From positions 4,340,001-4,404,000 of the forward strand of contig CP089276.1 of assembly GCA_023920165.1 (NCBI GenBank): 64,000 bases of DNA, read 5' to 3'. The notes beneath the pieces were generated by a model. It had not been told where the DNA came from. It saw only the letters and a program-made list of their open reading frames with translations, and made no database searches. This document shows positions 3,714-35,336 of the stretch, piece by piece. A program made the translations under genes and the position numbers. The DNA is from Curvularia clavata. Its lineage: Eukaryota. The first letter of the stretch is position 1. Each line of letters starts with the position of its first letter.

Positions 3714-4080
3714 TTTGTGCTGCTAGTCTGTCTAGAAATATAGACTAGATAGCTGTTTGTAGTCTAGCGCAGTAAATAAGCAGTTACTGTTCTTACTATG
3801 AAGAACTCTGGCTGCTAGTCGATCGAGTTGATCTGTCTGCAACTAGCTACAAGAAGCTTCGGCTAACCCCTAACCAGAGTATTTAGCTGCGTTTGCGGCT
3901 CAGAGACTCCTAAACTGATAGGGTTTTTGCTTCAGTAGAGTTTCTCAGCTTTTTAGCCGTGGTTTACTCTTAACCCTTAGTAACCCTAGCTTTTACTAAG
4001 AGACTAGCTATATTTATACTAGCTCTTACTTTAGTCTTATGCTAAGACTTGCTAGAATCTTCGATCGATAGACACGTAAT

Positions 4081-4094
4081 CCGGGCTCATAACC
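4081..4094 (-). promoter_or_regulatory. Primer-binding site GGTTATGAGCCCGG directly after the LTR
   Basis: Abuts the LTR-terminal CA. Resembles the copia/Ty5-type PBS complementary to the anticodon region of initiator tRNA-Met. Confidence 0.8.
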
Positions 4095-4443
4095 TGTAAA
4101 AGTGTGGGGTAGCTACTTATTCTACTAGTAGTAGACTCAGAGGTAGCTTGATTAAAGACTCAAGTAAGTAGTATATGCTAGGGGAGAGAGTTGATGGACA
4201 CGATTGACTTTGTATAAACTGCTCTGGTTTCTATCTACTAGCTATTCTACTACTATATATATTGGCTGGAGTAGATTCTAGAAGAATCTATCTAGTAGTA
4301 GCTTGCGTAATCTTTGGCGTCATAGACAGATGTCTATAGATCGATTATAGTCTTGACAGATCGACTATAGACTAAGTTGATTCTGGGTATAGGAGTACGC
4401 ACCCAGATACTGTAGATTAGCTGACTAGCTTAGATCTACAACA
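4095..4443 (-). repeat. 5' LTR of the copia element
   Basis: TG...CA ends (plus strand TGTAAAA...TCTACA(ACA)). Bounded by the PBS on one side and gypsy integrase codons on the other. The outer end is 4440 or 4443. Confidence 0.8.
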
Positions 4444-7400
4444 GTTATATCTAATTATCTTGCTAATAATTGACGTATATTTGTAGGTATATTTTTATTA
4501 TACGGTTTATCCTTTCCATTTATCTATTAGTTTTAGGGTAGTATATTATAGATAGCTTTTACTTAGTACCTATTTCTACTTAGAGTGTGGTCTAGAAGTT
4601 AGATATAAAAAGCTTATCTCTATTACTAATAATTAATTTTAGTATTCTATATTATCTAATAATAACGTTTAGAAAGATATACGCTAGTTTAACTACGTTA
4701 TAGTCTTTCCTAAATTTCCTAAATTCTGCGTATTTTGTAAATCTATTAATAATAACTAGTATCGCGTTATAGATTACACTAGTAACAGGGTCTATTAATA
4801 GTGGTAACCCTGTGACGAAGTCTATGGAGATATATATCCAAAGGGTACTTAGCAGTTCTAGTGCTTGCATTTCTCTATATAGTGCGTGTGTGCTGTGCTT
4901 ATTCTTCTAATAGTGTTCGCATTTAGCAATAAAGGCTGCGACCTTTTCTTTTATTTTGCTAAATTCAAAATTCTTTTAAATTAATTCTATTATTCTAGCG
5001 ATCCTGGGATGTCTGTGTATAGAATTGTCGTGATATTACTAAATAATTACTTCCTACTAATCTTTAGATATATTATTTCTAATTATTATAAGTAGGTTAA
5101 GCTTGTATACTAGACTTAATATTCCGTCTTTATTTATCTAGAATATTAGTTAGTCTATAATAGTTTTTATTCCTGCGATATCTAGTTTTCTGCTAAAAGC
5201 GTCTACTCTACTGTTATCTTTTCCTAGTATATATATAATCTTGAACTTGTATTGTCTGAACAGCTTAGCCTATTAGGTCTGTCGGTAGTTAAGAACTTTG
5301 GTGGTGGTGAAGTAGGTTAAGTTCTTATAATCCGTATATATAGTAAGTTCTAAGCAGCTATATATATAGACTCTCCAGTGTTATATATAGGCTACTATAG
5401 CTAGTAGTTTTTTATTATATATATTATATCGTTCTTCTGGTCCTAAAAGCTTCCTTAAGTAGTATACTATTAGATACTATTTACTATTAATATAGATGCT
5501 GGCGCATCCTTCTAAAACTAGATCTAATATATTAGTTTTAAATTTTAGTAGTACTCCTAGAATAAATATTCTAAAGTATAGTAGTATAGTATATACTTTC
5601 TTAATTATCTTAAAGGCGTTATCTGCCTTTTTATCTCAATTTTATAGAGTATTTTTTTTTGTAAGCTGTATTATTAGTGTTATAATCTTCGAGTAATCTT
5701 TAATAAATTCTTAGTTAAAGTTTATAAATTCTAAGAATAACTAAATATTTCTAATTAACTTTAGTATTAGCTAATTCTTAATAATCTTAATTTTTTCTTC
5801 GCTCATTTATACTCGATTAGTCCCTACTACGTAGCCTAAGAAGTTGACCTTAGTCTTATAAAATTCACACTTCTTTAGCTTAAGTCGAAGACTATACTCG
5901 TCTAGGGCTTTTAGCACTTTTCTAATATGCTTAGTATATTATTTTTTATCTTTAGAGTAGATTAGAATATTATCTAGATAGGCGATAATAAATATATCTA
6001 GATAGGGTCTAAGTACGTTATTAATAAATTTTTAAAATGTAGCTAGGGCGTTTATTAGTCTAAACAGTATAACTATATATTTATAGTGTCTATATTGTGT
6101 TTAGAAAGCTATTTTCTATTCTTCATCTTTTTTAATTCTAATAAGGTGGTATCCGTCTCGTAGATCTAATACTATAAAAATCCCTATTTAAGATAGTCGA
6201 TTCCTAAGTTCTCTAATATTTGGTAGTAGATATTAATTCTTAACTATAATATTGTTGAGTTGTCTATAGTTAATGTATAGTTGATCTATTCCATCCTTCT
6301 TTAGTATAAATATAATAGGGTATCCCACTAGAGATTTTAATAGTTATATATAGCCTTTTACTAGTAACTTGTCTATATACTTTTATAGTACTATAAGTTC
6401 TTATTCTAATAGTTGGTAAATTAGGCTAAAAGTCGGTTGCTTTCCTTCTTATAAGACTATTTTATAGTTCTAGAGTTAATATTTTAGTAATACTTATTTG
6501 TCTACTACTTCCTAAAATAGATGCTCAAATTCTCTATATTATTCAGGGATTTCTAGAATTACACTCTTCTCCTTTCCTCTAGCTTTATGGTCTGTTGGCC
6601 TAGTTTCAGTATCTACTAAGTTTGGCTTCCTGCTCTAAGAACTACCTTTCAAGTACGCTCGTTTCTCTACGTTATTATACTATTTAGTAATATTACTTTT
6701 ATCTACTATCGAACTCTACTAATATATAGGCTAGCTTATAGTTGCGCCTAGTCCGCAGCACTTAAATTTAAATACTTTCGACTTCTAGTCAATCTATGGG
6801 TTATATTCTCGTAGCTATAGGAGTCCTAAAATAATATTATAGATAGCTAGTCCAAGGACGTCTAGGTCTATTTTCTCTTTATACTCTTAGATACTAAGTG
6901 TCACTTATCTAACCTCGTCTATAATTCTGTTTTCTTTAGATATTAGTTTGCCGCTAGCGACGTATAGTGGGTATGGCTCTCATTTCCACTATACTTTAAG
7001 TCCAGCTTATTATATAGCGTGCGCTAAAACGTAGTTTGTCTATAATCTTAAGTCTACTAATATCTACATCTATATTCCATTAAGCTTTACTATAAGCTTA
7101 ATTAATTTTAGAGAGTTTACTAAATTGATTTCCCTAGAGAGGCCCTATCTTTATAGTACTAGCCTAAAAAAGTCTATAACTTCTTTATAAATCTGTTATA
7201 GAGTTTTTCTACTTCGTGTTTCTCGTATTTATTTGAGAGACAAGTATGCTATGAGGGTTGGTTACATACTTATTGTACGTTGCCCTTACTTCAAATAATA
7301 TAGGTAGTTTGTATATCTACTACTTCTCTTAGGCTGTCTCTTCTGAGAAAGTGTATCGCGGTGCGTTTATTCTATAGATGTCTTGCGCATCCTATATTAG

Positions 7401-9546
7401 TATACTCTAACTATATCTAGCTGTATTTGGGGTATCCGGGAGTACTGGTTAGATTCTAGTCGGATCCTTGCTTAGCTTGCCAATGTGTTGGGCAAAAGTC
7501 GTGGACGTAACCCGTCCAGTAGATCCACGCATGCTTATAGTTATTTGCGTAGTACTAATAGGGGCTAAGTTAGTACTAATTATCGCGTATCCAGTCTGCT
7601 TGTGCCTTTTTGGCCTATTAAGGTGTCGTTGTGGAGTTCTTTTTCCGGGGTGTCTTCTTGTTTTCGGGGAACTCCGTGTTTCCTCGTAGTTGTTAGATGT
7701 TGGCCGTAATATGCGTGTAGTCTGGTAGTTTCTAATTGGTCATAATAGAAAAGAAATTGATATCTAATCTGAGATTCTATATATCTTTATATATATAAAG
7801 AAGTATATTAGACTTATTATAATTATACCCATAAAAAGGTTGACTCAAGAGTTGTCATAGTACGTTAGTCTGTAGTTCTACATATTTTAGGTCATCCCTT
7901 GCGTGTGGGATTTTGGGTGAGGCGCTATCATAGCGCGGAGTAGCTAGTTAGTATTTCTTCTTAAACTTAGCTATTTTCTTATATTTAGTTTTATGCGTAG
8001 GAGTTTCTTCTTTCTTGCTAGGTATTTTATACTCTTCGTCGCTATTTAGTTTAGCTTTAGTAGTGTTTTTGGATGTAGTAAGTATAACATTCTCTAGTCT
8101 ACTAATAAGTCCCTCATCGTCTAGGTGATATTGGATCTTGGCTGGGGTAATAACGTTCTATCTCTTGTCGTTATCTAATTCTGATTTCCTGCGTAGTACG
8201 TTAAGTTATTGTTTGACCTTATTGGTATTTTTACTTCGACAGTCTCGTGCCATATAGCCTTCCTTACTATAGGCGTAGCAGTTAAACTTCTTCTTACTTT
8301 TAAATAGTTTCTTATTAAACTTATAGTATCTATTATTTTTGTTAATATTATTAAGATGTATTAGTTCTATACTATATCTATAATAGGCTTCTAGGGTCCT
8401 GGGCGCGTAGTTTCGCTGTCGACCTTCGTTCGGGTAAGCACGTCGATAGCTATGCTTCTTAGGTTGTTTGTTCGTGTATCTCTAGCTGCGCGTTCCCTTA
8501 CTAAATAGTTATTCTTCTAATAAGAGTTCGTAGAGTTTATTGTCCAGTTGAATAGATTCTTTAATAAGTTCTTCTAGTATACTAATACTAGCTCTACTTT
8601 GTATGAGTTCCCTACGTATAGTAGATTTAAGACCTTACTTATATATGTGTATAAGGGTATTATTATCCTATTCTATAACTGTAGCGTACTGCTAAAATAG
8701 TATAGTATAGTTAGCAGTAGACTGCGTCTAGTAAAGTTTCTAGATTTTTTATTCCGCAATAACTGATTTTTTAAATAGTAAGAAGTTTTATCGTATCTTA
8801 GTTTTAAAGGCGTTCTAGTCCTCGACTAGGGCTATATTATTGGCGTTCTAGATAGAGTTATCTATATAGCGTTTAATAATAAGGTTAGCCTATTTCTTAG
8901 CATTACCGCGAAGGTATAAGATAGCTATAATAATCTTATTGGTGTTATTAATTTTATCTCTTTCAAGATAGAAGTATCAGTTGACCTAGAGGAGCTAAGC
9001 TTTAAGCTTCTTGCGTTTTCTATAGTATAAGTTAGACTTATATCTACGAGTAGTAGATCCTCTAGTCTAGGAAGCGTTAGAAGTATTTATAGTAATATTA
9101 CTTATTATAAAAGTATTTAAAGTATTAAAAGTATAATTTTAAGTAGAAGTAATATAAGACTTCTGGTGTTAAGACTTTCTTAGATTAGTTTTCGCGGATA
9201 AAGTAATAGTATGTTATAAATAAAGATTCTACAGTAACTATTATATTATAGGTACTGTACTCGTAACTTAAGTTGAATATATTAAGCCGTAAGGGCTTAA
9301 TGCCTATTCCTATATACTAAGGTGTTATATAGAGTGCTCTGTTGCTCTGTCGTGCTAAGCACTATAGATTAATAGATCAAATGCACGTTGCTCTATTGCT
9401 CTGTTCCGCCAAGTGTTACAGATTATAGAGCATATTACGTGACCTAGTGCGGCACGGCTGCAGGATTGCGGCGCAGTGCCCGTACGTGGGAATCCTCCAA
9501 ACTGCTTACTGGCTCGTGCGTGTCATGGTTTTCCAGGGTCGTAACA
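4444..9546 (-). mobile_element. RIP-degraded Ty3/gypsy LTR retrotransposon (5' part), interrupted by the copia insertion
   Basis: Minus strand order: gag, knuckle relic CYAYSKEGYMARDC (~8240-8282), protease (~7050), RT YLDNILIYS (YLDD mutated, ~5960-5980), RNase H, then integrase ISIDFVTGLP and YVNY*QDN*. Many TAA/TAG stops and strong TpA excess. Confidence 0.93.
9230..9546 (-). repeat. 5' LTR of the gypsy element
   Basis: Begins TGTTACGACCCTGGAAAACC on the minus strand. Homologous to 20045-20306. The inner boundary is approximate. Confidence 0.75.
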
Positions 9547-10750
9547 CTTAGATAGAAATAATACTCTATTTTATCCAGTTAAGACTACGCTAGTTAGACA
9601 ATAATATGGATACGGACGCGGAGGTAGATATAGACGGCGATAGCGACGACAATAGTGACGTAGATGGGGACGGCGATATAGAGATAGAGGATGTTAAGAT
9701 AGTAGACGTAAGGGAGAGGTTGGATAATATGCTAATATAGCGTTGCGGAGGCTGGGTCTAAATTATATTTATTAAATTTGATTTAAATATAAAAAATGAA
9801 ACCTAAAGTGTTTCTTAAAATGTTTCGCAAAAGGCCGAAGCTGGAAAGTATAAGTATAATATACGAGTTACTTGCAGACTCTATTTATAACACACTATTA
9901 CTTTATCCGCGAAAACTAACCCTAAGAGCTCTAGCACTGAAGTCTTATATTACTTCCGCCCAAGACCTTACTCTTAACAATATTCTTAGCCATTTTATTG
10001 TCCGAGTTATAGTTGTTCTAAAACTACTACTTTTTCTAGTACTTTTTTTTTATGAACCCCCACTGGAGTATGTAAGGTCTAGAGCCTAAAAGTCCTTATA
10101 TTTAGATTTCTACTTAGATAGAATCTTTTATCTTAACTTTTTAATATTCAGTAAGCTAAGAAATAGTCTACCACTCATTCAAATGATATATATTTTAGGC
10201 TAATCGCCGCAGGCGAGCCAATCATAGGAAATAAAAAAAGAAATAAATAACTAAATAAATATAACGTATATTTTAGACTAATCGCTATAGGCGAGCTACT
10301 TATAAGGATAAAAATATGAATCAATAAAAGTAAATATATGGTAAAAAAATCTAATATTATAAATATAGCGAGATATCTATCTATTTGCTACGCTAGATAG
10401 TTATATAATATATTATTATATAATATCTTAGTTAGCTACTTGAATTAGACTAGACTAACTAAGCTCTATAAATATTTTAACCTCATAGTCTATATAGTCA
10501 AGTCAATAGTCTTAATTTTATCAAATATAACCACTATTCTATAGTGCATCCCTCATATCTAATTATTAATATAATACATTATAAAAGCTTATCAACTTCA
10601 ATAAAAGTCTGTAACAATTTCTTAAGGTCGACGCATTGTAATAGCACGAGCGATTCTCTTAGATGAGCAATCAGCTTGTAAACCACTTCATATAATATAT
10701 CATCTAGTAAAGACAATTAATTGATTCAATCATTGTGTATTCGTGTCTGT
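9547..10750. mobile_element. AT-rich RIP-mutated repeat debris, family unresolved
   Basis: Very low GC and TpA-rich. Includes an acidic ORF relic at ~9606-9760, a duplicated 78-bp hairpin unit at 10189-10315, and GACT/AGTC-rich repeats at ~10445-10511. Confidence 0.6.
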
Positions 10751-11492
10751 ACACTATATGAGTTTTAATCGATGTAGGGACCTAGACAGATTTACGAAAC
10801 ATTCAAGTTTACTATTATAGTTCGCACTTAGGAACGTATCGTTTAGAGAGGTTCTTTCAACAACGCGACTAGGCTGGGATTGCCACAGGATACACCTCGT
10901 TTCAGTTGCAGGATATGGAAGCGATCTAAAAACTTTCAGAGCTTGTCCACAGAGATTGGACAGACGTTCGGATCCTTGGGCGGAATCGTGATTGGCTTCT
11001 TCACAAGCTTCGGTACTGCCGTTATGACACATGGCACGTGCTCTGTGTTATACGAGACACGTTTGAGCTTGTGGGTCAATCGAGGAGATCATGGTGATGG
11101 TGGATGTAGCCTTGCATTCACTATGCAAATGCTGTGACTATATAAATAGTGGCATCTCCTTCACAAGCTTCCCTGTAACATGGGATATTCTTGGAAGGCT
11201 TGCAGCCTGTCGAGACGATTGTGAACAAAATGAGATACTACAAACACGGTCGGATGCACTTGCCGGATCTGCCTGCGTAAAGTAAGGACGTCCTCAAGGA
11301 CCACAATAAGGCCACCACTCATAACTCTCAACGATAGTCTCTCCTCAACGGTCGTCGACCGTGCCGCCTTTCCGTCGTATGATGGGCATCCTGCGACAAA
11401 TCTAATCAAATCTCGTGGTCGGCCGAATGTCGGAGGTGGCATCGACAAGCCACAAGCTTGGCAAGAAGCGCCTGATCTTGAAAACTCTGATC

Positions 11493-14530: not shown

Positions 14531-17500
14531 TTAAGATCCTGTGTTTCCCTGTTCAAATTCCAAACTCGCAAAATAGATACTCCAAAAAACTGAAAACGAA
14601 ACCACCATAATAGACAAAGGCACCGATGCCTTCTGCAAATCTCCGTCGTGGCCCCATGAGAAGAGCCGCATGAAGAAGAAAAGAATGCAAGACGACGCAC
14701 ATATGAAGTTGTACAGCAAAAGGCGTGGCACTGACGGTTTTTTGCGTGCAACGATACCCCCAAAAGTTTTATGCTTATCTGAATCTTCGACAACAGTCGA
14801 CTTACATTTGGGGAACAGTTTGAGAAAGTCTCGAGTGGACTCGTTGAAGCTTGTGCGCTTGTGATAGAAGTGGAAAATCGGGCGTAGATTGTAGCATGCG
14901 TGGAATCGATCGTAGAATTGGTGCTGGCCGATTGGGGGTATGAAATCCATTGGACTCGGCTCGAACTGATAGTCATACAGATTACTCCCATTTAGAAACT
15001 CCTCTCGTCTAGGTTCGTAACGATGAGCTTTGTACTTCTCGCACTAATATGAGTTAGTAGTGCTTTAATGCATAATTGACAAAGATATCGTTGCACAGAG
15101 AACATCTTACCCGATAAAAATCACAATGGGGATATTCCCAGATACTCACCCATCTTCTAGAAAGAGGCCGTAGATCGTTGTATTGCCGCCGCAATTCGTG
15201 GAAGAATTTGTACGTTGTGATAATGTCAAGTTTAATCTGAGCAAGACGACAATCATTTCCGGCAGCAACCAGAAAGAACACATGCTGAAGCGGTAAACGT
15301 AGAGGAGAAACACCGGTAGTGGTGTTCGGGCCTGTTCCAGGACCAGTTTCGTTAGAAGGCGAGCTACGGTTATCAAAGCTTTGGCTACTGTTTGCAATGC
15401 TTTCAGTAATTCCATCACTTGAAGTATTGGCATTAGATGGCGACGGCTGTGAACGAGCAACTTCGGGAGCTTGAATAGGTGCGTGGTATGCAACTCGTTA
15501 AAGTCGGGCGGCATATGCTATGGCGATCCGGGTCACTGTCTTTGCGAAACTTGAAGGAACTTCTGTCCATCTTTTCTCTCCGCACATCTGTCACGTATCA
15601 GACCACTTGATTTCGCAATGCCAGAATCTGGGAATCTACTGCTTACACAAGACCAGTGGAGTCGCGCTTCTCCAGAATCAAACGCTCGCTGTGGGCGCTT
15701 GAGCGGCCACCAGCCCCAGTCTTTTGTCCAATCTTCGAATTTGTTCTTGAGATCGTCAAAATAACTGATTGTGTTATTGTCAGACCATTTGATGGAGCTT
15801 GGGTCTGTGTCTAGCAGCTCAGCCATAACATGTTGCAATTTACCACTTCGGTTGAAACTATCCTTTTCAACATCATTTGGTTCGTGTGTCGTTATGAGTC
15901 CCATCAGAGACTTGCGAAAGGATGCAGATCTAGAAGGATCGCTACATATCTTCCATTCCAGATATGCATATGTCCTAGGCTCTTCCCAGCCTCGAAAACT
16001 CTTTTCAAGATCGTAGCTTAGCCCGCCATCAACGAAGCAATTTGTCGAAGATCCGACTGGTTTTATGTCCTGGATTATAAGCCGTTCTTTGCTTGATCAT
16101 CGAATACCTAAGAATTCTGTGGGTAATTGCAGTTCGACTTCGTTTCCAAACGTTCGTTGATGGAATAGCCAGAAGCAATACACAGGCCATCGAGTAGAGA
16201 TGTCCAAGAGGGTAAAGGCTCAGCTAAGTCAATCGGCACTGTGACATATGAAACAATAAAGATACCGGATTCAGAATTTTCCGACTTCCAAACGGTGTCG
16301 CAGTAGAATGGATATCGGCGTGCATCGGACGGCTGTTGTTGTTGTTCATTAGGTCTGCAGGTGGCGCCGAGCCATGCCAGTTGTTTGGCCACTGCAACTC
16401 GGAATTCTCTTACCCACCTGGTCGATACCGATACTCTACCTTTTTCCAAAACGACTCGTGTGCCTGAAAAATCTTCGTCCGAATGAGAGACTATGATCAA
16501 TGTGTTAAAAGAAAATATGCACATGTCAGCGATGTCAGGAAATACTAGAAAAGAAATCTCACTGTATGGATCTGATGTTGCTTTCTGAAGAGCAGGCAAA
16601 AAAGAACATTCAGTTGTATATTCCAGGTGTGGAGAACAAAATTCGCAACGGTTTCGAGCTGTGCAGCTTGTGTGTGACCCGTGATTGTAAAGACAGAGCT
16701 TAAATCATCGTTCAACCCATGACTTCGAGGCTCTTCCAGAAAGCCGACTAGGTCCCAGTCTGCGTGAAACTGTACCTTGAATGTCTCAGCAGTAAGTGCA
16801 GTCGGTTTTGATGTATTTCTTGTGATTCGAGAAAGACTTTGCCTGATGTGTTCCAGAGCATCATACTGGAAGTGCTTCATCAGTCGCTGTATATCTGAAT
16901 TCAAGGCCCCGAATGCAGGATGATTCTTAAAGTACCCATGTAGAGCTACAAAATCGAGACGAGTTTGCAATACGAAAGAGTGGCAGTCTGAGCTGTCTGA
17001 GCTCTCTGAATCAGCCTCATGTTCATGATTTAGATCGAATAAGGGTGCTTGACTTCCAACAACGATCGACTCCATTCTTTGGATTTTTTGCTCTATTGGC
17101 TCTAGCGGGATATCATATCCAAGGAGAGGTTTTTGCTGAATGCTCTCTGGTTCTGTACTAGTAGAACGCTGATCGCCAACAAGCAGCCTTCGTACAAACC
17201 CATTCAATATGGGTCGACGAAAGCGATATATAGCTTTGGCAATTTTCCTTTTTGGGTTTAACTCGATGACGTCCCGCGGATTATCCTTCTGGACCGTTTG
17301 ACTGAATTTCTTGATTTTCACCTGTAATATATCGAAGAGCATGCTCCAAATATTCAAGAGGAAGCCAGGATTGCAAGCTCTTTCGCAGAGTGCATCTGTA
17401 AAACACGCAATTACTTCTAAGTCTTCGTCTGGTGTCATCTCGAACGTATCATATGACGCCACTGAAGCATTGTCGTCTCCTTCAAAATCTCCTCCCGGAG

Positions 17501-19783
17501 GCTGGAAGACCGGGAAGGTGTGAGAATCACAAGCTGAGGTCCCCTCAGTCAGCTTCTCTTCTTCTGAGGAGAAAACAGTCGATGCTGATTCATCCAGATA
17601 ACGACTGTCTTTCCATGACGAGCCTGTACTTTGAGCCTGTTGCTTTGTGTTGTGGAAGTCAGGTTCGTTGTCCAAATGAAAAATCACTTCGTTGCCACGG
17701 CCTTCGTTCCCAACAGCTGCCACTACTGCCTCCTTTGTGATCGGAATGTCTGCTCCTTTTCGGTCAAAGAGGAGCGTCATAACTTCTCTATTCCATGCTG
17801 CTGCTACTACCTCCTTTGTAATTGGAATATTTGCTCCTTGCTGATCAAAGAGAAATCGAATAATTTCCTTGCCACTCCTTTGTGACTGGGATGTTCGCTC
17901 CTTTCTGGTCAAAGAGGAGTCTTAGAACGTCTTTTCCACTGCTTTCGTTCCTAGTAGCAGCAGCTACTACTTCTTTTGTGATCAAAATGTCTGCTTTTCG
18001 CCAGTTCCTGCGCTTGAAAAGAAGGCTCTTCCTCCCTATGTTCCCGGAAATAATTGCTTCTACCCACGGAAGGACCCCTGAAGAGCAAGCCATATAAAGC
18101 GCTGACTGATCAGAAGGCTTGAACCCTGAGTAGGCTGCCCACAAATGATTTCGTAGGGGAGAATCTTCCTTAAAGAATGGCTGAGCATATTCAAAGAGCT
18201 GGGTCGCAAACATTGGGCATTGGTTCGCATGCACCGGCCAGTTAACCACGGCATACAACAATAACAGTGATCCTCGATATGTTGATATTGTTTCCAAGTC
18301 CATGCTCTGATAGACTAAATCACTTTGCGTGATACAATTGAGGCACACTCGTGTTAGCTCATAATGCCCGTAGTGAGGTTCAAATCGGAACACCTCTAGC
18401 ACTGCAAAAGTGTCGCGCTCTTTACGCAGCAGGTAGCCTCGCGCTGACTGATGAACCAAGCGTATCTCTTGTCCTTGCATCTTTAAAAAAGACCCACACC
18501 TTACAACAGCGTCGCGGGTTGACTGCTCTACAGTTATATGAGATGGACTGGCCTGAAATCTTACTGCCGCAGCTAGTTGTTGAAGCGTTAAGGGAGAAAC
18601 AGCTATAGACACCCACTCTAAGATTGCACGGCTCAACTCCCTAGGGGTTGCTGGGATCTGCTGCAGCATGCGTTGATATATCGCTGAGAGACCACTAGGA
18701 AGACCTGTAAGAGCCTCCTGGATCTCCTTGTTCGTCCTCTTTTGTAACAACTCCTGGACTACGTAGCCTACCCACAGGAATGTATCTTCAGCATGCGCTA
18801 GGAGGTATTTTTGTATAAATGCTTGAGAATTGTCGTTCAAGCTATGGATCATTGATAGCTCCTCGACTCGGGCAGATTCGAACGGCTTGATATCTCTGTC
18901 CACTTTCTCGTTGTTGTCATGATCAAGTCTTATTCTAAGACAACCATGTAGACGAAGTATTTCTCTACTCACGATTACCAGTCTTAACGTACCGTTGCTC
19001 GACAATGAAGTCTCACTAGTAAGCATATCAACCACCTACAAAAATAACACTCTTGGTGTGCGCCCCTCCACGCCCTCGTCGAGCCCGTCAATCATACAGA
19101 ACATTGTCCCCAGCTCAGCATCAGTGACAAGTTTTACAAATATAAGCCATAGTGACTCTAGAGACGATAATATTTGCTGTGTCATATCCGAAGTCTCAAA
19201 GTATGGTAGCATGTGCTTTACTAGATGTGGTCGTTTTGTGATGATTTGGTGCACTAGTCCGCGCAGGACTGCTATAGCCGTGTTACGCTTCTCGTCTTCA
19301 GCGCAGAAGAAGAACACCAGCTCTCCATCAACTACGCGTGCTGTGTGCATCTCTAACACTTCTGTCAAGAAGACCGAGAGTATCGTCTTGCCCTTGCCTG
19401 GGCCACCAGAGATCCACAGCAGGCGTGTGTTGTTGTTACTGTCATTGCCATTACTATCCATATCGAGTCACTCCTTGTAGCTTCTATTCCGTATGGTTCA
19501 TTCGTAGGTGTCCGGGACTCTCGTACCCTTTGCGCTGATTACTTGCTCGCGGACGACGTAGGGATCAGTTATGAAGAGCGCGTTGCGACAGTTGACGGCT
19601 GCTCGTTCTGTTTCTATAAGGTGGGCATGTCAGTAGCGATTGTTATAACAAAGAACTAGTCAGTTTACCTCGGATTTCAGAACTGAGAGAATATAAATCG
19701 CCAACAGAAACTACAGAGGGTTGCGAGTGGTTATGAGCGGAGAGGCCGCTGATGCGCTCAGGGTGGAACAGATCTTCAGACAT
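14531..19783 (-). pseudogene. Disrupted chimeric NLR: short N-terminus + NACHT + ~35-aa helical repeats + long unrelated C-terminal region ending in two TM-like segments
   Basis: ATG 19783, intron 19614-19668. Walker A WISGGPGKGKT, Walker B MIDGLDE, plus FLWV, LPSGL..IY and LVHQSA. Repeats of type ITKEVVAAA..N...GK.V...LFDQKGANIP. Stops at 19498, 19468 and 19036; frameshifts near 17880, 16600 and 16140. Confidence 0.82.
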
Positions 19784-21950: not shown

Positions 21951-24075
21951 ATGATGAGAACGACCAGGCATGACACAGTTCAGAGCAAGTGCTGTCCTGT
22001 GTGCAACTGCTTGGGCTACTGCGCCGAGCAGAATCAAAATGATAGAGTCCCTCGATCTAGGCCGAAGGTTCTTACCTCGCGCACGTTTCGTGACTTCGAG
22101 GCATCTGCGAAAGACGGTTGCCGGTATTGCGACTATGCTTTTCAGGGTTTTGTCCTTTTGGGATCTACTGCAGAGAATCCGGAGGTAGAGCTGATATTAT
22201 ATGTTGACTCACCCACCGAGTTGCACTCAGCAACTAATGAGAATTTTTGCGATGTTGTGGAGATTTATCCATCTTCAGGTATGCTTGGTAGATAGTGAAT
22301 GTGTTAGCTTTGCTGGAGCTGATGTATGCATGGTAGATACGGAATCACCTTTTCCAAAAGTCGCAAATGATGTACCAAGAGACGATATCCGAAAAACATC
22401 CTTAGAATTCATTCAGGAGAATTACGACTGTTGCTGTAATTTCCATCCAACGTGCGCTGAGGACGCACCAAGCCTTCCAAAACGGGTTGTGGATATCTCC
22501 AAAGAAAGGTATCGACTTATTGAACCAGAAAACGGGACAAATGCGGCATATGCCACGTTATCTTATAGTTGGGGTGGCAAGAACTTCATGACAACTACGT
22601 TAGGAAGCTACGAAAGGTTAAAGGACGGCTTTGAGAAAGACGAGATGCCTTTGGCTTTCCAAGAGGCAGCCGTGATTGCTCAATATTTGGACATCGATTA
22701 TATCTGGATCGATAGCCTATGCATTGTCCAGGACAACGAAGATGACTGGGAGAGCCAAGCTGCCCACATGGGACAAATCTTCGAATCAGCCGCCGTCACC
22801 ATCGCTGCCTCTTTATCTCACAACCCGCACGAATCTCTATTTGTCAGGAAGAACCCTAGGTATGAAGAATTCGAGCTTTACAACGATTCTCATGGTAACT
22901 ACAACGGTGCTGTTTTCAAAGCAAGAAGAAAAACTACCTTTGGTATACATGCCAAGACTGGTCGGTCAAAGGATGTAGATCACCTCGATACACGTGCTTG
23001 GGGCTTGCAAGAAAAGCTTTTATCACGACGTCTGATAGCTTTTACCGGCGCTGAAATACAATGGACATGTCGAACATCAAAAGTATGCGAATGTCGCAGT
23101 AAGACTTACACGCCAGAACCACTGTTACTCCCATCTGCCAAAGAAGCTGATATTAAGAATGAACATGGGTATGCAAAGGCTTGGAGCAGAATTGTAGAGC
23201 CTTACTCAGATCGCAGTCTCACATTCCCAGATGATCGACTCCCGGCAATAAGTGGTTTAGCGAAGAAGTTCCAGCAGACCACAGATTTTACTTACATCGC
23301 AGGCCTATGGAAAGAAAACATTTGCTACGATTTGATGTGGCAATGCGACATCATGACTTCAGCCCTTCTAAGTACTCCAATGGTCGATTCTGCAGCATCG
23401 TATGTCACATCAACAAGAGCATACTTAGCTCCAAGCTTTTCCTGGGTTTCCGCACGTGGTGCCGTAAACTATAGGTTGGCACGCCATTCATATCCGGGCA
23501 CTCGCATTCAGCACATGAGCCTAGTAAATTATAGATGCAGTACTATTGGACTCAATCCGTTCGGCAAAGTTACGGACGGATCACTAGATGTACGCGGTAC
23601 CACCATCGAAGCGTGGTTGCGGAGCAGTTCCGGAACTCCTGATGATTATGAGCTATGTATCATGGATACTATATACCAGCCAAATGCTGATCAGCGAAAA
23701 GCCTGTGAATTCTCCATCGATTTGCAACATACGGCAGGGATATGGGCCAACACTGGAGAACAACCAGCACAAGCTTTGGGTAGTAAACGCCTACGTATAG
23801 GAATCGGAGATATAGAAACGCCAGTTGTATTGCTTGGTGTCTACTCGATCCACCACCGGAACTACTTGTATCAAAACTTCCTGATCCTGAGGTCATCTCC
23901 TCGAGCGATCAATACATACGAGAGACTCGGCATAGGGTCAGGCAAAATCTATAACAGAGACGAAATCCCTGCACAGTCGCAACTCGTCCAGCCGTTTGAA
24001 TGGCTCTCGGTTGACCTTGGGGAAAGAGCCCACGCTCTGAAAACTGTCGTTGATCAGGTGATCCGAATCACATGA
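21951..24075 (+). CDS. HET-domain (heterokaryon incompatibility) protein; intron 22279-22336
   Basis: N-terminal CxxC...SAxxGCxxC, then LPKRVVDI, YATLSYSWG, YIWIDSLCIVQD..DW, LDTRAWGLQEKLLSRR, YS.RSLTFPDDRLPAISGLA and APSFSWVS. Confidence 0.92.
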
Positions 24076-24710
24076 TCATTCGTCATGCTGTGTTGTGTTA
24101 AGACATGTCAGCTGAAAAGATGTGTCTTCGTACCTTCACATGGTGGCGGAAAGACTATGGGGATTCCTGTGGGTAGACATCTCAGAGATGCTCCACACAA
24201 TAGTCTTTATTTGTGGCAGCCCATTCATCGCATCCGTCGACTTTGCACCTTGAGGCTGGCATTGATATTAAATTTGGTCTGCAGGTCTAATGGCGCACAA
24301 TTGTTGGAGGGTGTGCGGGAGGGAGGGAGGGGGCGGGCGGGGGTGGAACCTCGTTATGTGAAGGATGAGACTAGTGGATGAGCTGGCAGCCGATAAGAAA
24401 GGGGTTTAGGAGATGAAGACAGACTTTGCTGCCTACAGTTCAGCCCAACCCCGCACTTACGTTGTCTTAAGCACAACTGAGCTGAAGCGCGCTTCGCGCC
24501 AGCCTTGCACCGGTCACACCACTTCGGTTAAGCCATACACGAAACGTATAAACTGCATATCGCTTCCAACGCCAAGAGACTAGGGATGGGTAGTGGTATT
24601 TTATATCTACAGCCTTTCGTAAATACCATACTGTATTTACACCCACCAGAGGGACCATACAGATGAGCTCGATGAGTAAGGTATGGATCTCGGAGATAGT
24701 TCGTCACACG

Positions 24711-24891
24711 GTTACGATCAAAGACCAGAGCAAGCAAGGTCAGAGGCCTGGCAGGTATTAGAAAGTTATGCGTAAGATAGAACAATAACAATCACAACAC
24801 GTGATTACATAGGCCACAGTGGGGCATGCCATGGGGCTCCTGGAAGAGGCACGTGCGCTAGTGGATCGCGCCCAGGAAATAGATCGTAACA
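24711..24891. repeat. Probable gypsy-type solo LTR; a second LTR-like end (...GTTCGTCACA, 24708) abuts it on the left
   Basis: Perfect 9-bp terminal inverted repeat GTTACGATC (24711) / GATCGTAAC(A) (24882-24891). Same TGTTACG-type terminus as the other gypsy LTRs in the window. Confidence 0.5.
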
Positions 24892-26065: not shown

Positions 26066-29000
26066 ATGAAGAGCCAGTCGATCAGCAGCGACGAGAAAGA
26101 CATGTCTGAGATGACATCACAGACACTGCTAGTAAACTCCAGAATTCCTTCAGTGAGGGATAATGTTGGAGACACTGCAGCACATCAGCAAGGCTCAGAC
26201 CACAGCAACGGCACAGATAGTCACACAATTGATGGACATTATGGACGAAATCTTTGGGAAGAACTCGAAGATGCGATCGATGAAAAATTGGTCACAAGCG
26301 AGTTCGAAAGGACGCCCCACGATTTTCTCCCTGAGGGCGAATTGGAAAAGATTCTAAGATCCGTTGCCAAGCGACTATACAAAGGCAATTTGCATCAAGT
26401 CATATCCAGTCTTTTACTACTGAACACGCCTCAAACACCCAGAGAAGAGCTATCCGCTGTTGTGGAATACATCTTGGACGACGAATTCCCGGCAATAAAA
26501 CTTTTCTTCACGGTATTGTCCTCCAGGCATAGGGACCCTTATAACGCCATGATGATTTTCATGCGACAACGCAAGCCGATTCGCGACGCTGATCTCCCGA
26601 TACCATGGTCGAATGAACAGGTTCGAAAGGACGTTCAAAACCACCCTTTCTCTCTCCTGGAGAGATCACCAAGGGGGTTATGGCCAAAATCATCCATCTC
26701 AGAGTTCCATGATAAGCAACGTCGTTTCCAAGCAGCAGTATTGACTACCCACCCGGCAAAGATACCTGGACAATTTGGTCAAAACATTCTTCCGTTCACT
26801 CAAAGAGATTCCAGATGCAATCGAGGCGCATTTGGTATTGTTTCCAAATATACCGTTCATCCGAACCATTATGATGGTGACAAAAAGGTGGGTTGATTCA
26901 TGCTTCAAACATTAGGAATGTGAGAAGAAGACGACTAATTTGAGAGTGTAGATAGGCTCCCCTTGCGTTGTGGCGGTCAAGGAACTTACAAAGGATAACG
27001 ACAAAGTTGCACACCATTGGGCAAATGAGGTGAATGCCCTATCGAAGATGAACAGTCTTAATCAAGAACATATTGTTCGATTCCTGACGGCTTTTACACG
27101 CGGCAAACCGGAAGACCAACCAGAAGACTTGGAGTATTACGTAGTTTTCGAATGGGCAGAAGGTGGCAATCTAAAAGATCTATGGGGCGAGTTTCCACAT
27201 CCAGATCGAAGTGTTGCATTCATCCAATGGATCATGAAACAATTGTACGGACTGTGTCAAGCGCTTGCTGCAGCTCACTACTTGAGGGATGAAGACGGTG
27301 TATACAGGGGTGCATCGTACCGCCATGGTGATCTGAAACCTGAGAATATTCTTTGGTTTCCATGGGAGGGTGAAGATTGGGGAACATTGAAGATATGCGA
27401 TTGGGGAGAGGCCAAGATTCACCATGAGGTCACCGCACTTCGCCATGCAACAACCACCCAATTTGGAACAAGGAGATACGAGCCCCCCGAGGTTGTCGGA
27501 GGAAAGCCTGATCTTGATGAATCAGCAAAGGATGCGCGTTCCCGACTCTACGATATATGGAGCATGGGTTGTGTCATGATGGAGTGCATTATTTGGCTTG
27601 TATATGGTCTGGGAGAGCTCAAGAGATTCAACAAGAGCAACAAGGGGGACCACAGCATCTCTGAATTCTTTTACGAACCGTACAATGAGGGCTTGGTGAT
27701 CCATGGGATCGTAAAGCAATGGCTAAATTACATGATGAATGATCCGTTTTGTCGACCGGGCGAGACTGCTCTCGGCGACGCCTTGGAGATCATATCCAAA
27801 GGTTTGCTGGTAATTCGACTTCCACCGGGGGATATACAACCAGAAGATGTTCCCGGTATCGAATGCGCTTCAGTGCTGTCTAAAGAGCTGACTCCACGAG
27901 CTGCGCCAAAACCTACGTTGATGGTGTCCCCGCCCCTTGACGAAGATTCTGGCAACATTTACGCGTCTGCAAAAATCACGGCTCCACTCACGCCGATTCC
28001 AGTTTACAACAAAGTGCAAGACGCCTTAGCGGCAACGCAAAACTCCGCTGCGCGCCCCGGTATCAGCGTGACGTTAGCGGAACAACCTGTCGCCTCTACA
28101 AAGACCGAGCATCTTTCTGGTGAGCCAGCGCGATACCGTGCCACAGATTTAGTGTCTTGTCTTGCGAAAATTGTCGAAACTAGCCATAACGACCGATATT
28201 GGCGGGCTCCTGGCTCGCCTTTGCCCGCCCCGCAAGCATCAAGTGGCTCTCATTTAGTCCCAGGTTCGATTGCTAATAGGCATGCTGTCACCAAACAGCC
28301 CGATCAAGGCAACTACTCACATCCGGAGCTTAATCGAGAGCGGTGGACGTTTGTCGTGGATAACGACTTTGCTGCAAGGGTACTTTCCAATCGCATACAC
28401 ATCCAAGCTCTGTCGGGTGCTGCATCATCGACGCCGAAGTTGTGTGAAAAATGCGCTGAAATCCAAAAGAAACTCTGGAGCCCGTTGTTCAAAGAGACGT
28501 TCACAACCGAGACACTCAGGCATAATGCTGAAGCTAAGCTATGCGATCTATGTTGCCTCTTCTGGCAAGCTTGCATTCAACATAACGCTTCCGATCGCCG
28601 ATTGATAGTATTCGAACGAATCGATTCTAATCTGAAGATTAGCGGCAGCGGCACAGAGTTGCATGCTATCAGCCTCTTCCGAGGAAATGGTAAGTTAGCT
28701 AACGCCATGGGGATTGCATATTGCTAATTGTTGCTGACTTAGCTTCGTAGCCCACAGTCATGCATATAGTCTCCAGATCGGGTTTGGGGAACTGCCCGAA
28801 CCTGGGCATCCGGCACATCTCGATATCATTCGGGCTTGGATTGCCGATTGCGACGAGAACCATTCCGACCCCGTATGTAATCCATACGGGAAACGTAGAG
28901 ATTCTTTTCCGAAAAGTGATCTTACTCCATGCATGCCTACTCGGCTCATAGACGTTGGGTCTGGAGATGATCGACATGTTAGGCTAATACCGACAGAGCG

Positions 29001-30346
29001 AGGCAAGGATCTGAAGTGGATTGCGCTTTCATACCGCTGGGGAAGCCGACATCACTTTTCCACAACTCGGGCAAATATCAATGAACACATGGAAGACATG
29101 AGTTTGTCTGACTTACCAGAGGTTTTTCAAGATGCTATCCACATGACACGAGGTCTACAATGCCGATATCTCTGGATAGATGCCATTTGCATCATTCAGG
29201 GAGAAGATGGTGATTTTACGGCAGAATCAAAAAGAATGGAAAACGTGTACAGCGGCGCGTATTGTGTGCTCGCTGCAAGCTACGCCAACAGCTTTCGACT
29301 GTTTGATACCCGTGAAAAAAGAGCTCAGGTTGCGCTAGGCTCTATGGATAGCCAGACCGGCGTCATCTATGCTTGCGAGATGATCGACAACTTCAAAGAC
29401 CATGTGCTAGATGGTCCACTTAGTCAGCGCGGGTGGGTCTTGCAGGAGCATGCTTTAGCTCGTCGTACGATATTCTTTACAGAATACCAGACCTATTGGG
29501 AATGTGGCCATGGAGTTCGTTGCGAAACCATGGCGAAGATGAAAAAGTGAGTACTTCAAAATTGTTCAAAGTGCCTGGCCGCCCCAGTGCGACGAGGCTC
29601 ACAAGATGAACAGTGTATCGGCTGCTTTGCTAGGCGACCCCGATTTTCCGAAGATACTGAAGCCTGCTGAGCATGGAGAGAGGATACTGCGATATCAGGA
29701 ATTGTATCAACAATACTCACAACTTAGCCTTACGGCTGACTACGACCGACCATCCGCTATTGACGGTTTGGAACGACGACTGATTCGAGCCATGGGGGTG
29801 AATGGCGGGTTTGGCGTACTGGAAGACCTCAAGAATCCAGGGCTTCTACGTCGCAGTCTAATGTGGTATCGTGCCACAGATACTTTAAGGGTCATCAACT
29901 TCCCTGAGGGTCGTGAGAAAGTCCCATCATGGTCTTGGATGTCGGTCTCTGGTCCAATTCATTACTTTCGCTTGGAATTTTTTGGATACGAGTGGAAAGA
30001 CATACATTCACCGTGGTCGAAGTCTGGGGTTGACCACGCAGGTAATGTGATGATTGCAGAAGCTTGTCGTCTCAAGCATCCTGATTGTACTGAGGCTCCA
30101 GGAAAAGACATAAGCTTCGACATCCCGGAGAAAGTCAAAGATCCCTATGAGGAGAATTTACTAGCGGTTGTTCTCGGCATAGAGAAAGGCGACAAAAGTA
30201 TTCAAGACAAAAGGCACTGTGTCCTTATTGTAGAGCCGATATCGCAGCAGTATGTTACGGATTATAAAAGGTGCAGGAGAGTGGGGGCGGGTATCGTGAC
30301 GGGAAATCACTTATCTGAGAAATGGGGAATGTGGTCCATAATTTGA
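26066..30346 (+). CDS. Protein kinase-HET fusion (~1362 aa); introns 26888-26951, 28690-28750, 29547-29613
   Basis: Kinase motifs: RGAFGIV, VAVKEL, NEV, HIVRFL, FEWAEGGNL, YRHGDLKPENIL, KICDWG, YEPPE, DIWSMGC. HET motifs: MPTRLIDV, WIALSYRWG, YLWIDAICIIQG, LSQRGWVLQEHALARR, VPSWSWMS. Exons sum to 4089 nt in frame. An extra 5' exon from 25932 is possible. Confidence 0.9.
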
Positions 30347-31491
30347 ACATACGAAGCTGCAATCCAAGAAACATAAGATCTTTCTCATTGCTCATTCCAG
30401 TAACTAGAGCGTATATCTCCCCAACAGATAAGATGTTCCTCGCCTCTCCTTCTCCAATAGAACACGCGAGGCTGAGATTCGTCATCACCCCTGCCTGCTA
30501 CATTGCATTAGTGTGCATGGTTAGATCGCAGGGGTCGCGGTTTTTGAGGTGGCTCACACTCGTTTCCTGGGATCACTGCGATCCATTAATGCTTGGCGTA
30601 AATGCCCTCACGCACACGTCTCCACCAGGACTAGTGCGCCATATCATCCTTCATAGTCCTTTGGATCATGTGACATGCTTCGGCTTACCGCTTTTGCTGA
30701 GCTCTCAACCAGTGCGGATATCTGCTAAGCCGATGAGCTGGCTACTTACGATTTAAAATCGTACACTCAATTAGCTCATATGGTATGGTTCATCAGATGG
30801 CTGTAAACACGGTACAAAATACTACTACATCTATAGGTGTGAATGACCAGCCATTTCGACCCTGGTCACCCACCACTGCACTGTGACATCGCGCGCGGCT
30901 CGAAAGCAGCCACAGGCGCTCAGCCGGTTCTCTTCTCCGCAGCATCTCTTTGCCGTACTCCAGGTAGCGCAACTTCTTCGCTTTGTCGCGGAAGTGCGTT
31001 TCATCAAATTTCTTGTCAAACTTAAAACCCTCATTCATACCACAGTGCGCAGTGTAGTTATAAGACGAAGCGCCACACATTACAGGCGTGAAGAGCGACT
31101 AAAGTCCAGGTGTAAGGTTCGTCCCGCAATACGAGGTAATCCGAAGGGCAACCACACTCAAAGTCCTAAGGCCCACCATCTCTTGCTTAGCCTGCTACCG
31201 CCACCGCCGATACCTCCAAGGCTGAAGATGGACTGGGAAAAGGCTCAGGTATCGTGTGTGGTGCTTAGGATTTGTGATTGGACAAACATCATTTAGTGGC
31301 TTGCGTCGGGAGCAGAGGGGCTGAATTCTTACGCAAACTGTGTGCATTGAATTGCACTGGGAATGGGTCGACATCTATCAATACTGATAACGTTGCCAAA
31401 TATAATTCATATGATCATGATTTCTTGCCCCCTCTGACTGCCTTCATCATTTGCATTCCCATCGTACACTTGATGGCGAAAGGTTGGCACA

Positions 31492-33849: not shown

Positions 33850-35336
33850 AAGACCTTCTCCCATTGTATATGCGCAAAGTGTCCTGAATTGATGCTCGTA
33901 AGACCAGCATGAGCGATCACCAGCATACCCTAAGTATAGTATGGGGCATGTGCATAAAGGAGCTTGAAGCCGGATGCTCCAATTCCCTTCACTATGCTGC
34001 TGTACCTTCAACCGGATAGCATAGATGAGATTATATCACCCGACGGGTTAAATATCTCCATGAGCCGACTTATCGCTTTCTTCAGGTCGATATGGGTTAA
34101 GCCAATGCAATCCTTTTAGTTTTCTTTTAGGTTTACTAACATACCCAAAAGAAGATCTCCCACATCCATGTTCGTGTCCTTAGCTGGTATATCCCTCATA
34201 CGTGGAGTAAGGACGTCGGCCACCAATTTAAGTCTGGACGAAATGCGAAAAATGCCTCCCGCATGTCAGTCACCATAGGATAGCTCTTACTTGTCCTCAA
34301 GAGTATGGAGAATTGCTTCAGCGATGTGGCTGGTAAGTACCTGCTGAGCCATGATTGCATTACCTACCATATTCTTCTTTTAAGGTACCTTGATAGGTGT
34401 GAAAACTATGGTATTACCAAACCACTGATTAATGCGGCGCTGAAGGCGTTCGATGATAAAAAACTCTCTTACATGCCAGTGCAGTCAACCTATCTAGTCT
34501 CTTTGACCTGGATATGAAAAATCTAGAGTTAGCGCTGATGACATTCAAAGAAGCGTTTGCAATACGCAAAAAGTTGTTGAATCCGACTGAGATGGGCGCA
34601 TCAGGTCTCAATGACATATCGCTTGCATACAGCGAAACGGGCGAACTTGACAAAGCCTCCACTGCACACGAGAAAGCGATTGACATCCGATTATGTACGA
34701 ACAGTGACAGGACCGGCAATTATTACGGTAATATGTCTATTCTGTTCTCGAGAATGGATGAATCCAACGAGGTGACGGATACGCTCAAGCGACGTACATT
34801 ATTTAAAGATTTTACGGATGAAACGCTCATAAAGACAATAAATTCGCGTTTTTCAGGGGACGTCGTGCTTGTTTCCCGTATCTGGGTCCAAAAAGGCAGG
34901 ATCGACTAGGCTCTTCAACTTGCGTCAAAAGCTCTAGATCTTCGAGAGAAACTACTAGGTAACCGCCTGAAAGCGGGTGATTCAATATATGGCGTAGCTT
35001 CACTGCTGCATGTACACGGGAACTCTTCTTCTGCCATGTGAGTAAAAACCAACTAATTTGTGACACTTGGAAGTCACTGACATGACGCGTTACAGTGAGC
35101 TACTGAGACAGCTGACGAATATCATGGGATCTTCTCCTGGGAGCAAGCTGACCCTTGCCAGGGCTTTTTATAATCTTGCAGTTTTCCAGAATGAAAGAGG
35201 AAGACATGAGGAAAGCTTGAGGGCTGCATCGAAACCAGATGCTGCAGGAGAGCCACTCGTTGAAGAAAGGTTCATGAAAATATCTGCACGATATTGTGGT
35301 AGTAAACTGAAGAACAATGAAAGTGTGCTTGTTTAG
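33850..35336 (+). pseudogene. Degenerate TPR-repeat gene, resembling the C-terminal half of a fungal NB-ARC-TPR NLR
   Basis: TPR-like peptides AFAIRKKLL, SGLNDISLAYSETGELDKASTAHEKAIDIR, GNYYGNMS and LARAFYNLAVF. Frameshift at ~34470-34515, in-frame TAG at 34907, intron-like 34332-34385 and 35038-35094. No recognisable nucleotide-binding domain remains. Confidence 0.75.

Follow-up and report, generated by a model that had tools for sequence, protein, structure and literature searches.

How a fungus might use a protein kinase that is joined to a HET cell-death domain is the question raised by a gene of Curvularia clavata, here called K1-HET, which lies in a window of 64,000 nucleotides (assembly GCA_023920165.1, contig CP089276.1, positions 4,340,001 to 4,404,000; coordinates below count from the first letter of this window). 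An initial annotation, made from the DNA letters, described an intact fusion in which a kinase that lacks Arg before its catalytic Asp (non-RD) and carries DWG instead of DFG would gate the HET domain in cis, or else serve as a sensor or decoy. The kinase-HET fusion itself is common in filamentous fungi and the gene taken singly is nothing unusual; what is new is the pair that its kinase, K1, forms with a neighbouring kinase, K2, and the value of the locus lies in a conserved two-kinase module with possible splice control. We propose, tentatively and at somewhat less than even confidence, that K1-HET is the downstream half of a phospho-relay from K2 to K1 to HET that operates in fungal defence or cell death. 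Directly supported are the architecture, the conservation of both active sites, the linkage to K2 and the co-transcription of kinase and HET.

Kinase, zinc module and HET domain in one gene

The DNA-based model of K1-HET has four exons (26066-26887, 26952-28689, 28751-29546 and 29614-30346) separated by GT-AG introns and is open over 1362 amino acids. Entry P0001, which NCBI names 'HET-domain-containing protein [Curvularia clavata]', is identical to it except for 14 residues added at intron 3, where RNA from two runs (X1 and X6) backs the four-exon model and the version in P0001 has no RNA support. The RNA consists of assembled contigs from four of 18 runs, and minor forms are lost in such contigs. 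One 4531-nucleotide contig of run X1, from a strain that differs from the window by ~1.4% (40 changes in 2958 bases), covers the whole gene and so places kinase and HET on one transcript; introns 1 and 3 are spliced in X1 as in the model, and such joints also occur in X5 and X6. Separate kinase and HET transcripts had been named as evidence that would speak against a fusion: the transcript is shared, but the HET part is out of frame on the X1 contig.

The protein runs from an N-terminal domain through the kinase, a putative zinc module and the HET core to a C-terminal extension (Table 1). The motifs on which the initial annotation was built are all in place, namely VAVK (K284, at 26979), the alphaC Glu (E300, at 27027), YRHGDLKPEN at 27318, DWG at 27399, a CxxC...CxxC segment ahead of HET (28443 and 28542) and a complete HET domain, which matches 146 of 146 Pfam positions (E 4e-29, 102 bits against a cut-off of 22.5) and holds the ALSxxWG, WID and RGWxxQE motifs. 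Together with a glycine-rich loop reading RGAFG, K1 keeps the VAxK Lys, the alphaC Glu, the catalytic Asp, Lys and Asn, the DxG Asp, the APE Glu and the subdomain XI Arg (R668), and by sequence criteria it is a putatively active protein kinase (PF00069) with Gly before the catalytic Asp (HGD), as expected of a non-RD kinase. K1-HET holds a single kinase domain, its partner being a separate gene with a separate RNA contig, and Pfam scans of all four exons gave none of the NACHT, NB-ARC or C-terminal repeat domains that mark fungal NOD-like receptors (NLRs).

The Pro/Ala-rich stretch had been read as the linker between kinase and HET and has to be redrawn as a variable insert in the kinase C-lobe, because solved kinases align through the helix that follows it. 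This alignment was made with a relative, P0050, modelled in place of the focal chain, which is too long for folding: residues 36-484 of P0050 align to solved kinases with Z 24 through the post-insert helix to their ends, and the predicted local distance difference test (pLDDT) is below 50 over the stretch matching the insert, which is followed by a confidently modelled helix. Across relatives, the insert measures 5-124 residues and R668 behind it is 97% conserved, leaving only amino acids ~693-735 as the linker proper. The conserved N-terminal domain was absent from the initial annotation, as was the adjoining K2 gene; a profile of this domain matches 115 of the 120 long K1 relatives considered below and 75 of 99 K2 relatives. 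An Atlas search with the domain of the window gave no match, and one with the domain of a relative returned unnamed Ascomycota clusters only. The CxxC...CxxC module is found in 113/120 long relatives, with all four Cys in 104/120, and we infer that it binds zinc.

Conservation of both active sites

Exon 2 used as query returned 228 proteins longer than 1015 amino acids at E<=1e-10, a number that argues against a chance fusion, and an unindexed search gave at least 543 cluster representatives at E<=1e-30, of which the 150 listed ones were examined. Family counts given here refer to the best 120 of the 228, and those for K2 relatives to 99 proteins. The family is widespread in Pezizomycotina, extends over Dothideomycetes, Sordariomycetes, Leotiomycetes and Eurotiomycetes and includes FGSG_02152 of Fusarium graminearum (P0093). 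HET is present in 116/120 long relatives; the initial annotation had remarked that kinase-HET fusions occur in fungal annotations.

All six catalytic residues of the kinase (K, E, D, K, N, D) are retained in 111/120 relatives. The activation-loop residues T435, R438, T441 and T447 are 98-100% conserved, R398 and R472 are nearly fixed, and because this loop is near-invariant we infer that K1 would be controlled by phosphorylation despite the missing RD Arg. On the HET side, D997, R1080 and E1086 are retained in 110/120, E1086 being 93% conserved. Gating of HET by the kinase in cis, as first suggested, would be plausible given two conserved, putative active sites.

The argument from a non-RD motif to an immune kinase proved weak. 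HGD occurs in 116/120 K1 relatives and also in 97/99 K2 relatives, of which 12 have a Pfam HET match and the other 87 have none; DWG (79/120; 110/120 together with DMG, 31/120) is mostly limited to one K1 subclade, and DFG is found in 72/99 K2 relatives. Because these features are present family-wide, with HGD shared by K2 relatives, we read the non-RD loop and DWG as lineage traits and HGD as no marker of HET fusion. A review puts non-RD kinases at 9-29% of kinomes (PMC8872720). The nearest solved kinases by sequence are RAD53, CHK2, CDKL5 and NEK2 (CAMK/NEK/CDKL-type), and by fold the P0050 kinase scores Z 24 with TGF-beta receptors and, by a small margin less, Z 21.5 with IRAK1. A PDB sequence search with the family profile gave kinases only among the 60 matches listed, and a fold search with the 1167-residue P0050 model gave kinases throughout the matches listed.

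The HET core was modelled with pLDDT 90.5, and E1086 lies on a helix (model residues 227-235). Among 48,161 chains, its nearest folds (Z 4.5-5.7) are nucleoside deoxyribosyltransferases, MilB and TIR domains (SARM1, SpbK, MyD88, ThsB), and the majority of the 19 best-ranked matches belong to either the nucleoside deoxyribosyltransferase/MilB or the TIR/ThsB group; Pfam at E<=5 gave no TIR match. In the models, the core thus weakly resembles TIR and nucleoside N-glycosidase folds, in agreement with a published remote homology between HET and TIR (PMC4986451), and the two are reported to share a functionally important Glu (PMC9153377, PMC9815663). Because nucleoside deoxyribosyltransferases and MilB are among the best matches, the substrate need not be NAD+, which we take as a lead. 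The predicted template modelling score of P0050 (0.72 over 1167 residues) exceeds what its kinase or HET half alone could give, a weak hint of a fixed kinase-HET arrangement; a complex prediction of the P0001 kinase (206-692) against zinc-HET (735-1246), in which the alignment was unused, scored 0.00.

A second kinase travels with K1-HET

K2 lies downstream of K1-HET, has its own spliced RNA contig and is 25% identical to K1 over the N-domain and kinase. In 5 of 6 named species K2 falls within three accession numbers of K1-HET (Table 1); these species were picked after linkage hints, and 5/6 is no rate. In fourteen of the 120 long relatives, one annotated chain contains both kinase domains. 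Twelve of these chains place K2 ahead of K1, one of the twelve having no HET, and the other two read K1-HET-K2 and may have arisen by the merging of neighbouring genes. We suggest K2 as the partner of K1 because its gene travels with kinase-HET in these ways, adjacent or fused. A quick tree separates K1 from K2 with a support of 100 for either clade, and each of the 15 two-kinase proteins included has one domain on either side. K2 tracks its K1 partner rather than the order of the host: Pleosporales pairs of the window type fall with those of Sordariales, and the fused pairs of Pleosporales lie elsewhere.

K2-type kinases are also annotated in chains with HeLo and NACHT domains (P0461: kinase, HeLo, NACHT) and with other HET types. 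HET-first, K2-type-kinase-last annotations occur in Fusarium and Xylariales (P0407, P0408, P0413, P0420, P0424, P0427, P0441, P0462, P0475) and are either real fusions or merged neighbours. In F. graminearum, Fg02153 was considered as the K2 partner and not counted as a pair, its tag having been guessed from numbering with the sequence unseen; Fg02153 is listed as a kinase whose deletion gave no sexual defect (PMC3245316).

A candidate relay and the points that weigh against it

In our model, K2, whether adjacent or fused in front, would meet K1 through the shared N-domains and phosphorylate K1 at the conserved Thr residues of its activation loop. Once active, K1 would release or assemble the HET module, which would act as a TIR-like, E1086-dependent N-glycosidase on NAD+ or another nucleotide and thereby give cell death or a defence signal. 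The choice between the two acceptors of intron 2 may also limit how much HET-bearing protein is made in the window lineage. Taken as a whole, that is, as an NLR-independent death or defence module of filamentous ascomycetes in which two sister non-RD kinases relay to a fused TIR-like HET glycosidase with an intron acceptor as safety catch, we consider the proposal speculative and, in all its parts together, unlikely.

Several points weigh against the relay. The order K2, K1, HET is itself a proposal about predicted activities. The linkage was checked for a minority of the 120 relatives. Of the metagenome loci, L003 and L004, which match over the gene, and L006 show no second kinase in 3.6 kb upstream and ~5 kb downstream; L007 has one, in divergent orientation, to which the K1 profile gives a higher score than the K2 profile does. 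In eight Alternaria alternata assemblies K2 lies ~34-43 accessions from a K1 without HET, possibly the result of HET loss after the pair was split. Some two-kinase chains may be gene-caller merges, the tree is a quick one of 77 domains, and the correlation of K1 and K2 distances (Mantel rho 0.78, 21 pairs, 0/5000 shuffles) is inflated by shared ancestry. Seven fused Pleosporales proteins have lost the catalytic-loop Lys of K2, which can hardly be an ordinary upstream kinase there. On the HET side, the structural comparison proposed at the outset did find TIR and N-glycosidase folds nearest, but at Z 4.5-5.7 only: the best match (Z 5.7, root-mean-square deviation 4.0, 104 aligned) falls in the range below 8 that may mean a common arrangement only, and Foldseek returned nothing for the core at E<=0.001. 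The equation of E1086 with the catalytic Glu of TIR draws on motif likeness and published statements, and an incompatibility role is known for few HET genes (4/132 in P. anserina; PMC10890737). Finally, the only intron 2 joint in the four runs, from X1, skips 53 nucleotides to an acceptor at 28742, not 61 to that at 28750.

As a side observation from the same species, the P0150 cluster of Alternaria alternata comprises K1-zinc proteins of 762-820 amino acids without HET from several assemblies, ~36 accessions from K2.

Intron 2 splicing and alternative explanations

In the window sequence, acceptor 28742 shifts the frame into a TAG at 28748-28750 and yields an 855-residue kinase-zinc protein without HET. 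X1 depth in the intron 2 bin (139.5 against 157.6) fits a skip of 53, not 61, nucleotides, and no indel is listed, so that the description of the fusion as intact holds for the DNA model but not for the RNA joint. A splice-gated switch, in which the usual mRNA (28742) gives kinase-zinc only or is decayed and the HET form appears upon a shift to 28750, for example on non-self contact, would explain this and would be compatible with the phospho-relay; we consider it rather unlikely. It is favoured by two branch-point motifs ahead of two acceptors, by loci L001 (80% amino acid identity) and L002 (72%), which repeat the layout with a stop from the TAG of the second acceptor, by an Epicoccum nigrum annotation (P0125) that ends in ...RDNVS as the 28742 product does, and by the position of the intron at the zinc/HET boundary throughout the family. 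Against this, the joint comes from one contig of one run, that strain may have lost the second acceptor, P0125 is a prediction, and the stop-giving layout is present in only 2 of 7 loci examined, the upstream AG being in frame in L003/L004. As a control, intron 3 was compared between the window and L001 and shows a degree of conservation similar to that of intron 2, which removes special conservation of intron 2 as an argument. Because no near-identical 855-residue protein was found among the best 120 of 662 mid-length matches, the short isoform is without a second support; these matches are mostly exon-sized open reading frames (ORFs) of genomic contigs and so give no evidence of split genes. 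Relatives have full-length frames: a Bipolaris cluster holds intron-free 1301-residue fusion ORFs (P0245, on 18 Logan/ENA contigs of <=5.6 kb; P0254), other members break at intron positions, and the short contigs would accordingly be mRNA; at L003 a single open genomic frame runs from kinase through HET. We regard the full-length fusion in relatives as real, as judged from these frames. At L007 (~5920-5990), the equivalent of intron 2 seems to start with GC, not GT.

The same joint might be noise or a strain-specific lesion in a copy that is decaying in the window lineage, the fusion being only predicted. The HET-less form with RNA support, two departures of the window N-domain from the family motif QWxFxAP (W219R and P224A), the HET-less K1 annotations in Alternaria and the retrotransposon and broken NLR genes nearby would fit, and yet we find decay very improbable, the least probable of the readings considered here. 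Exons 3 and 4 are both open, with 73% and 65% identity to P0002 as against 24% for the insert. Exon 3 differs from L001 at 39 of 95 four-fold sites, and yet the two are 80% identical in protein, a sign of purifying selection on the HET exons. Because of this selection, some in-frame kinase-HET mRNA is likely in the window lineage. Nor do we see much room for K1 as a decoy or guardee that would trip HET once a foreign effector modifies it, an improbable reading to which the non-RD motif, the unusual DWG and variable N-terminal additions (a second kinase, long extensions) nevertheless lend some colour. The near-invariant catalytic and activation-loop residues of K1 fit a decoy poorly, and K1 is more conserved than K2 (mean identity 45% vs 39%, 21 pairs). 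No fast-evolving surface was noticed on K1, though no search was aimed at one; the decoy role may suit K2 in the seven fused proteins in which it is degenerate.

Harder to set aside, if still unlikely, is signalling without death, in which HET would serve as a scaffold or as a sensor or producer of a small molecule and the kinase as output in stress or development. The deep conservation of the family over four classes and the good expression of the gene in X1 suit such a role, Dyrka et al. suggested that HET acts as an adaptor (PMC4986451), and most HET genes have no known function (PMC10890737). Against it stand the conserved putative catalytic Glu and pocket residues, the report that isolated HET suffices for cell death (PMC10197012), the K2-type kinases annotated with HeLo/NACHT and other HET types, and a neighbourhood with another HET gene, a broken NACHT gene and a TPR remnant.

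Genomic neighbourhood

The region from 16 to 35 kb looks like a defence cluster because two HET genes, K2, the broken NACHT gene and the TPR remnant stand together. The TPR_12 fragments are probably what is left of an NLR gene, within a long 3' region. The spliced antisense transcript at 23734-24849 has no ATG-started ORF of more than 65 amino acids. Between K1-HET and K2, low-depth spliced joints on opposite strands (30497-30558 and 30781-30836) reveal faint intergenic transcripts. An AT-rich stretch within 1-11000 possibly consists of repeats mutated by repeat-induced point mutation.

Table 1 Features of the K1-HET locus and accessions of linked K2/K1-HET pairs
Feature	Position or accession	Strand	Remarks
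K1-HET gene	26066..30346	+	four exons; 1362 amino acids with acceptor 28750, 855 without HET with acceptor 28742
N-terminal domain, amino acids ~62-240	26249..26785	+	conserved, ~180 amino acids, no Pfam match; common to K1 and K2
K1 kinase domain, amino acids 241-692	26786..28205	+	split by intron 1 (26888-26951); Pfam Pkinase E 8e-23
Pro/Ala/Ser-rich disordered insert, amino acids 565-667	27822..28130	+	inside kinase C-lobe; followed by R668 and last kinase helix
CxxC...CxxC putative zinc module, amino acids ~736-854	28335..28689	+	CxxC at 28443 and 28542; precedes HET
Intron 2	28690..28750	+	zinc/HET boundary; branch-point motifs 28723, 28733; acceptors 28742 (out of frame), 28750 (in frame)
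HET core	28751..29546	+	Pfam PF06985 at 29017-29448; GWVLQE, E1086 at 29446
HET C-terminal extension (PSWSW ... RVGAG)	29614..30346	+	no Pfam match
K2 kinase gene, 705 amino acids	31492..33762	+	N-domain and kinase (RHGDIKPAN, DFG), no HET; three RNA-supported introns
Linked pair, Phaeosphaeria sp.	KAH7398887/888
Linked pair, Bipolaris maydis	KAH7550928/929 and KAJ5022156/157
Linked pair, B. sorokiniana	XP_007696936/937
Linked pair, Podospora australis	KAK4186814/816
Linked pair, Immersiella caudata	KAK0613670/669
Stand-alone CxxC-HET gene, 688 amino acids	21951..24075	+	25% identical to HET part of K1-HET
Broken NACHT-type NLR gene	16545-19467	-	NPHP3_N/NACHT piece, in-frame stop, winged-helix domain, DUF7104 repeats
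TPR_12-bearing fragments, several frames	34460-35336	+	X1 K2 RNA contig continues through to 35037
Spliced antisense transcript	23734-24849	-	CT..AC intron 24088-24133, three runs; overlaps 3' end of 688-residue HET gene
Ty1/copia retrotransposon ORF	3-3722	-	beside AT-rich stretch, GC 27-36% at 4-11 kb

Comparison with known systems

HET proteins, non-RD kinases and kinase-HET annotations are already known. We found no published account of the kinase-HET family, the kinase pair or the splice choice in a search that excluded subscription papers and two sets of supplements (PMC3245316 and PMC2838846); the main text of Kosti et al. 2010 has 0 mentions of kinase-HET fusions. No enzymatic activity of HET is established in the literature searched, with subscription journals largely outside. 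How HET kills and what most of the ~100 HET genes per genome do are described as open (PMC10197012, PMC10890737). In the K1-HET family, the HET domain comes with a switch of its own that can be altered through kinase-dead and activation-loop mutants, and its genetic partner is named, which would make HET enzymology testable without an NLR trigger.

K1-HET shares a full Pfam HET domain with its conserved Glu with the HET incompatibility proteins (TOL, PIN-C and HET-6 of Neurospora; HET-E/D/R and BH of Podospora; vic1/6/7 of Cryphonectria), and HET fusions other than NLRs are known, such as the HET-lectin BH1 (PMC10890737). In contrast to these proteins, its HET is C-terminal, behind an intact kinase and zinc module, with no NACHT, repeat or lectin domain, and its genetic partner is a kinase; no allelic divergence came to light, in a comparison that covered one other strain in detail, ~1.4% different, and was not aimed at it. 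TIR domains carry a WxxxE motif on a helix. The GWVLQE of K1-HET, on a helix after the third core strand, resembles it, and TIR NADases (SARM1, ThsB, SpbK) stand with nucleoside 2'-deoxyribosyltransferases and MilB at the top of the HET-core fold search; unlike TIR NADases, HET has long insertions and a ~240-residue C-terminal extension, and the fold scores are weak.

Like the non-RD immune kinases XA21, FLS2 and Pelle/IRAK, K1 lacks Arg before the catalytic Asp, and it comes with a putatively TIR-like domain. It differs in having no receptor ectodomain and in its nearest kinases (RAD53/CHK2/CDKL5/NEK2, or TGF-beta receptors), and the Thr residues of its activation loop are invariant, which points to control by phosphorylation and departs from what is usual for non-RD kinases (PMC8872720). 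Fungal NLRs with an N-terminal PKinase (Dyrka et al. 2014; compare P0461) likewise place a kinase in an immune-type architecture, whereas K1-HET has no nucleotide-binding or repeat domain. In the RIPK1-RIPK3-MLKL pathway (PMC10197012), as proposed for K2 and K1, related kinases act upstream of a death effector; this is analogy only. For K2 and K1 the effector would be HET, which forms one chain with the second kinase. Plant tandem kinase resistance proteins also place two related kinases, one of them sometimes degenerate, upstream of a death effector, and here too the likeness is one of analogy. If the relay is true, K2 and K1-HET would stand as a fungal equivalent of RIPK/IRAK relays and of plant tandem kinases.

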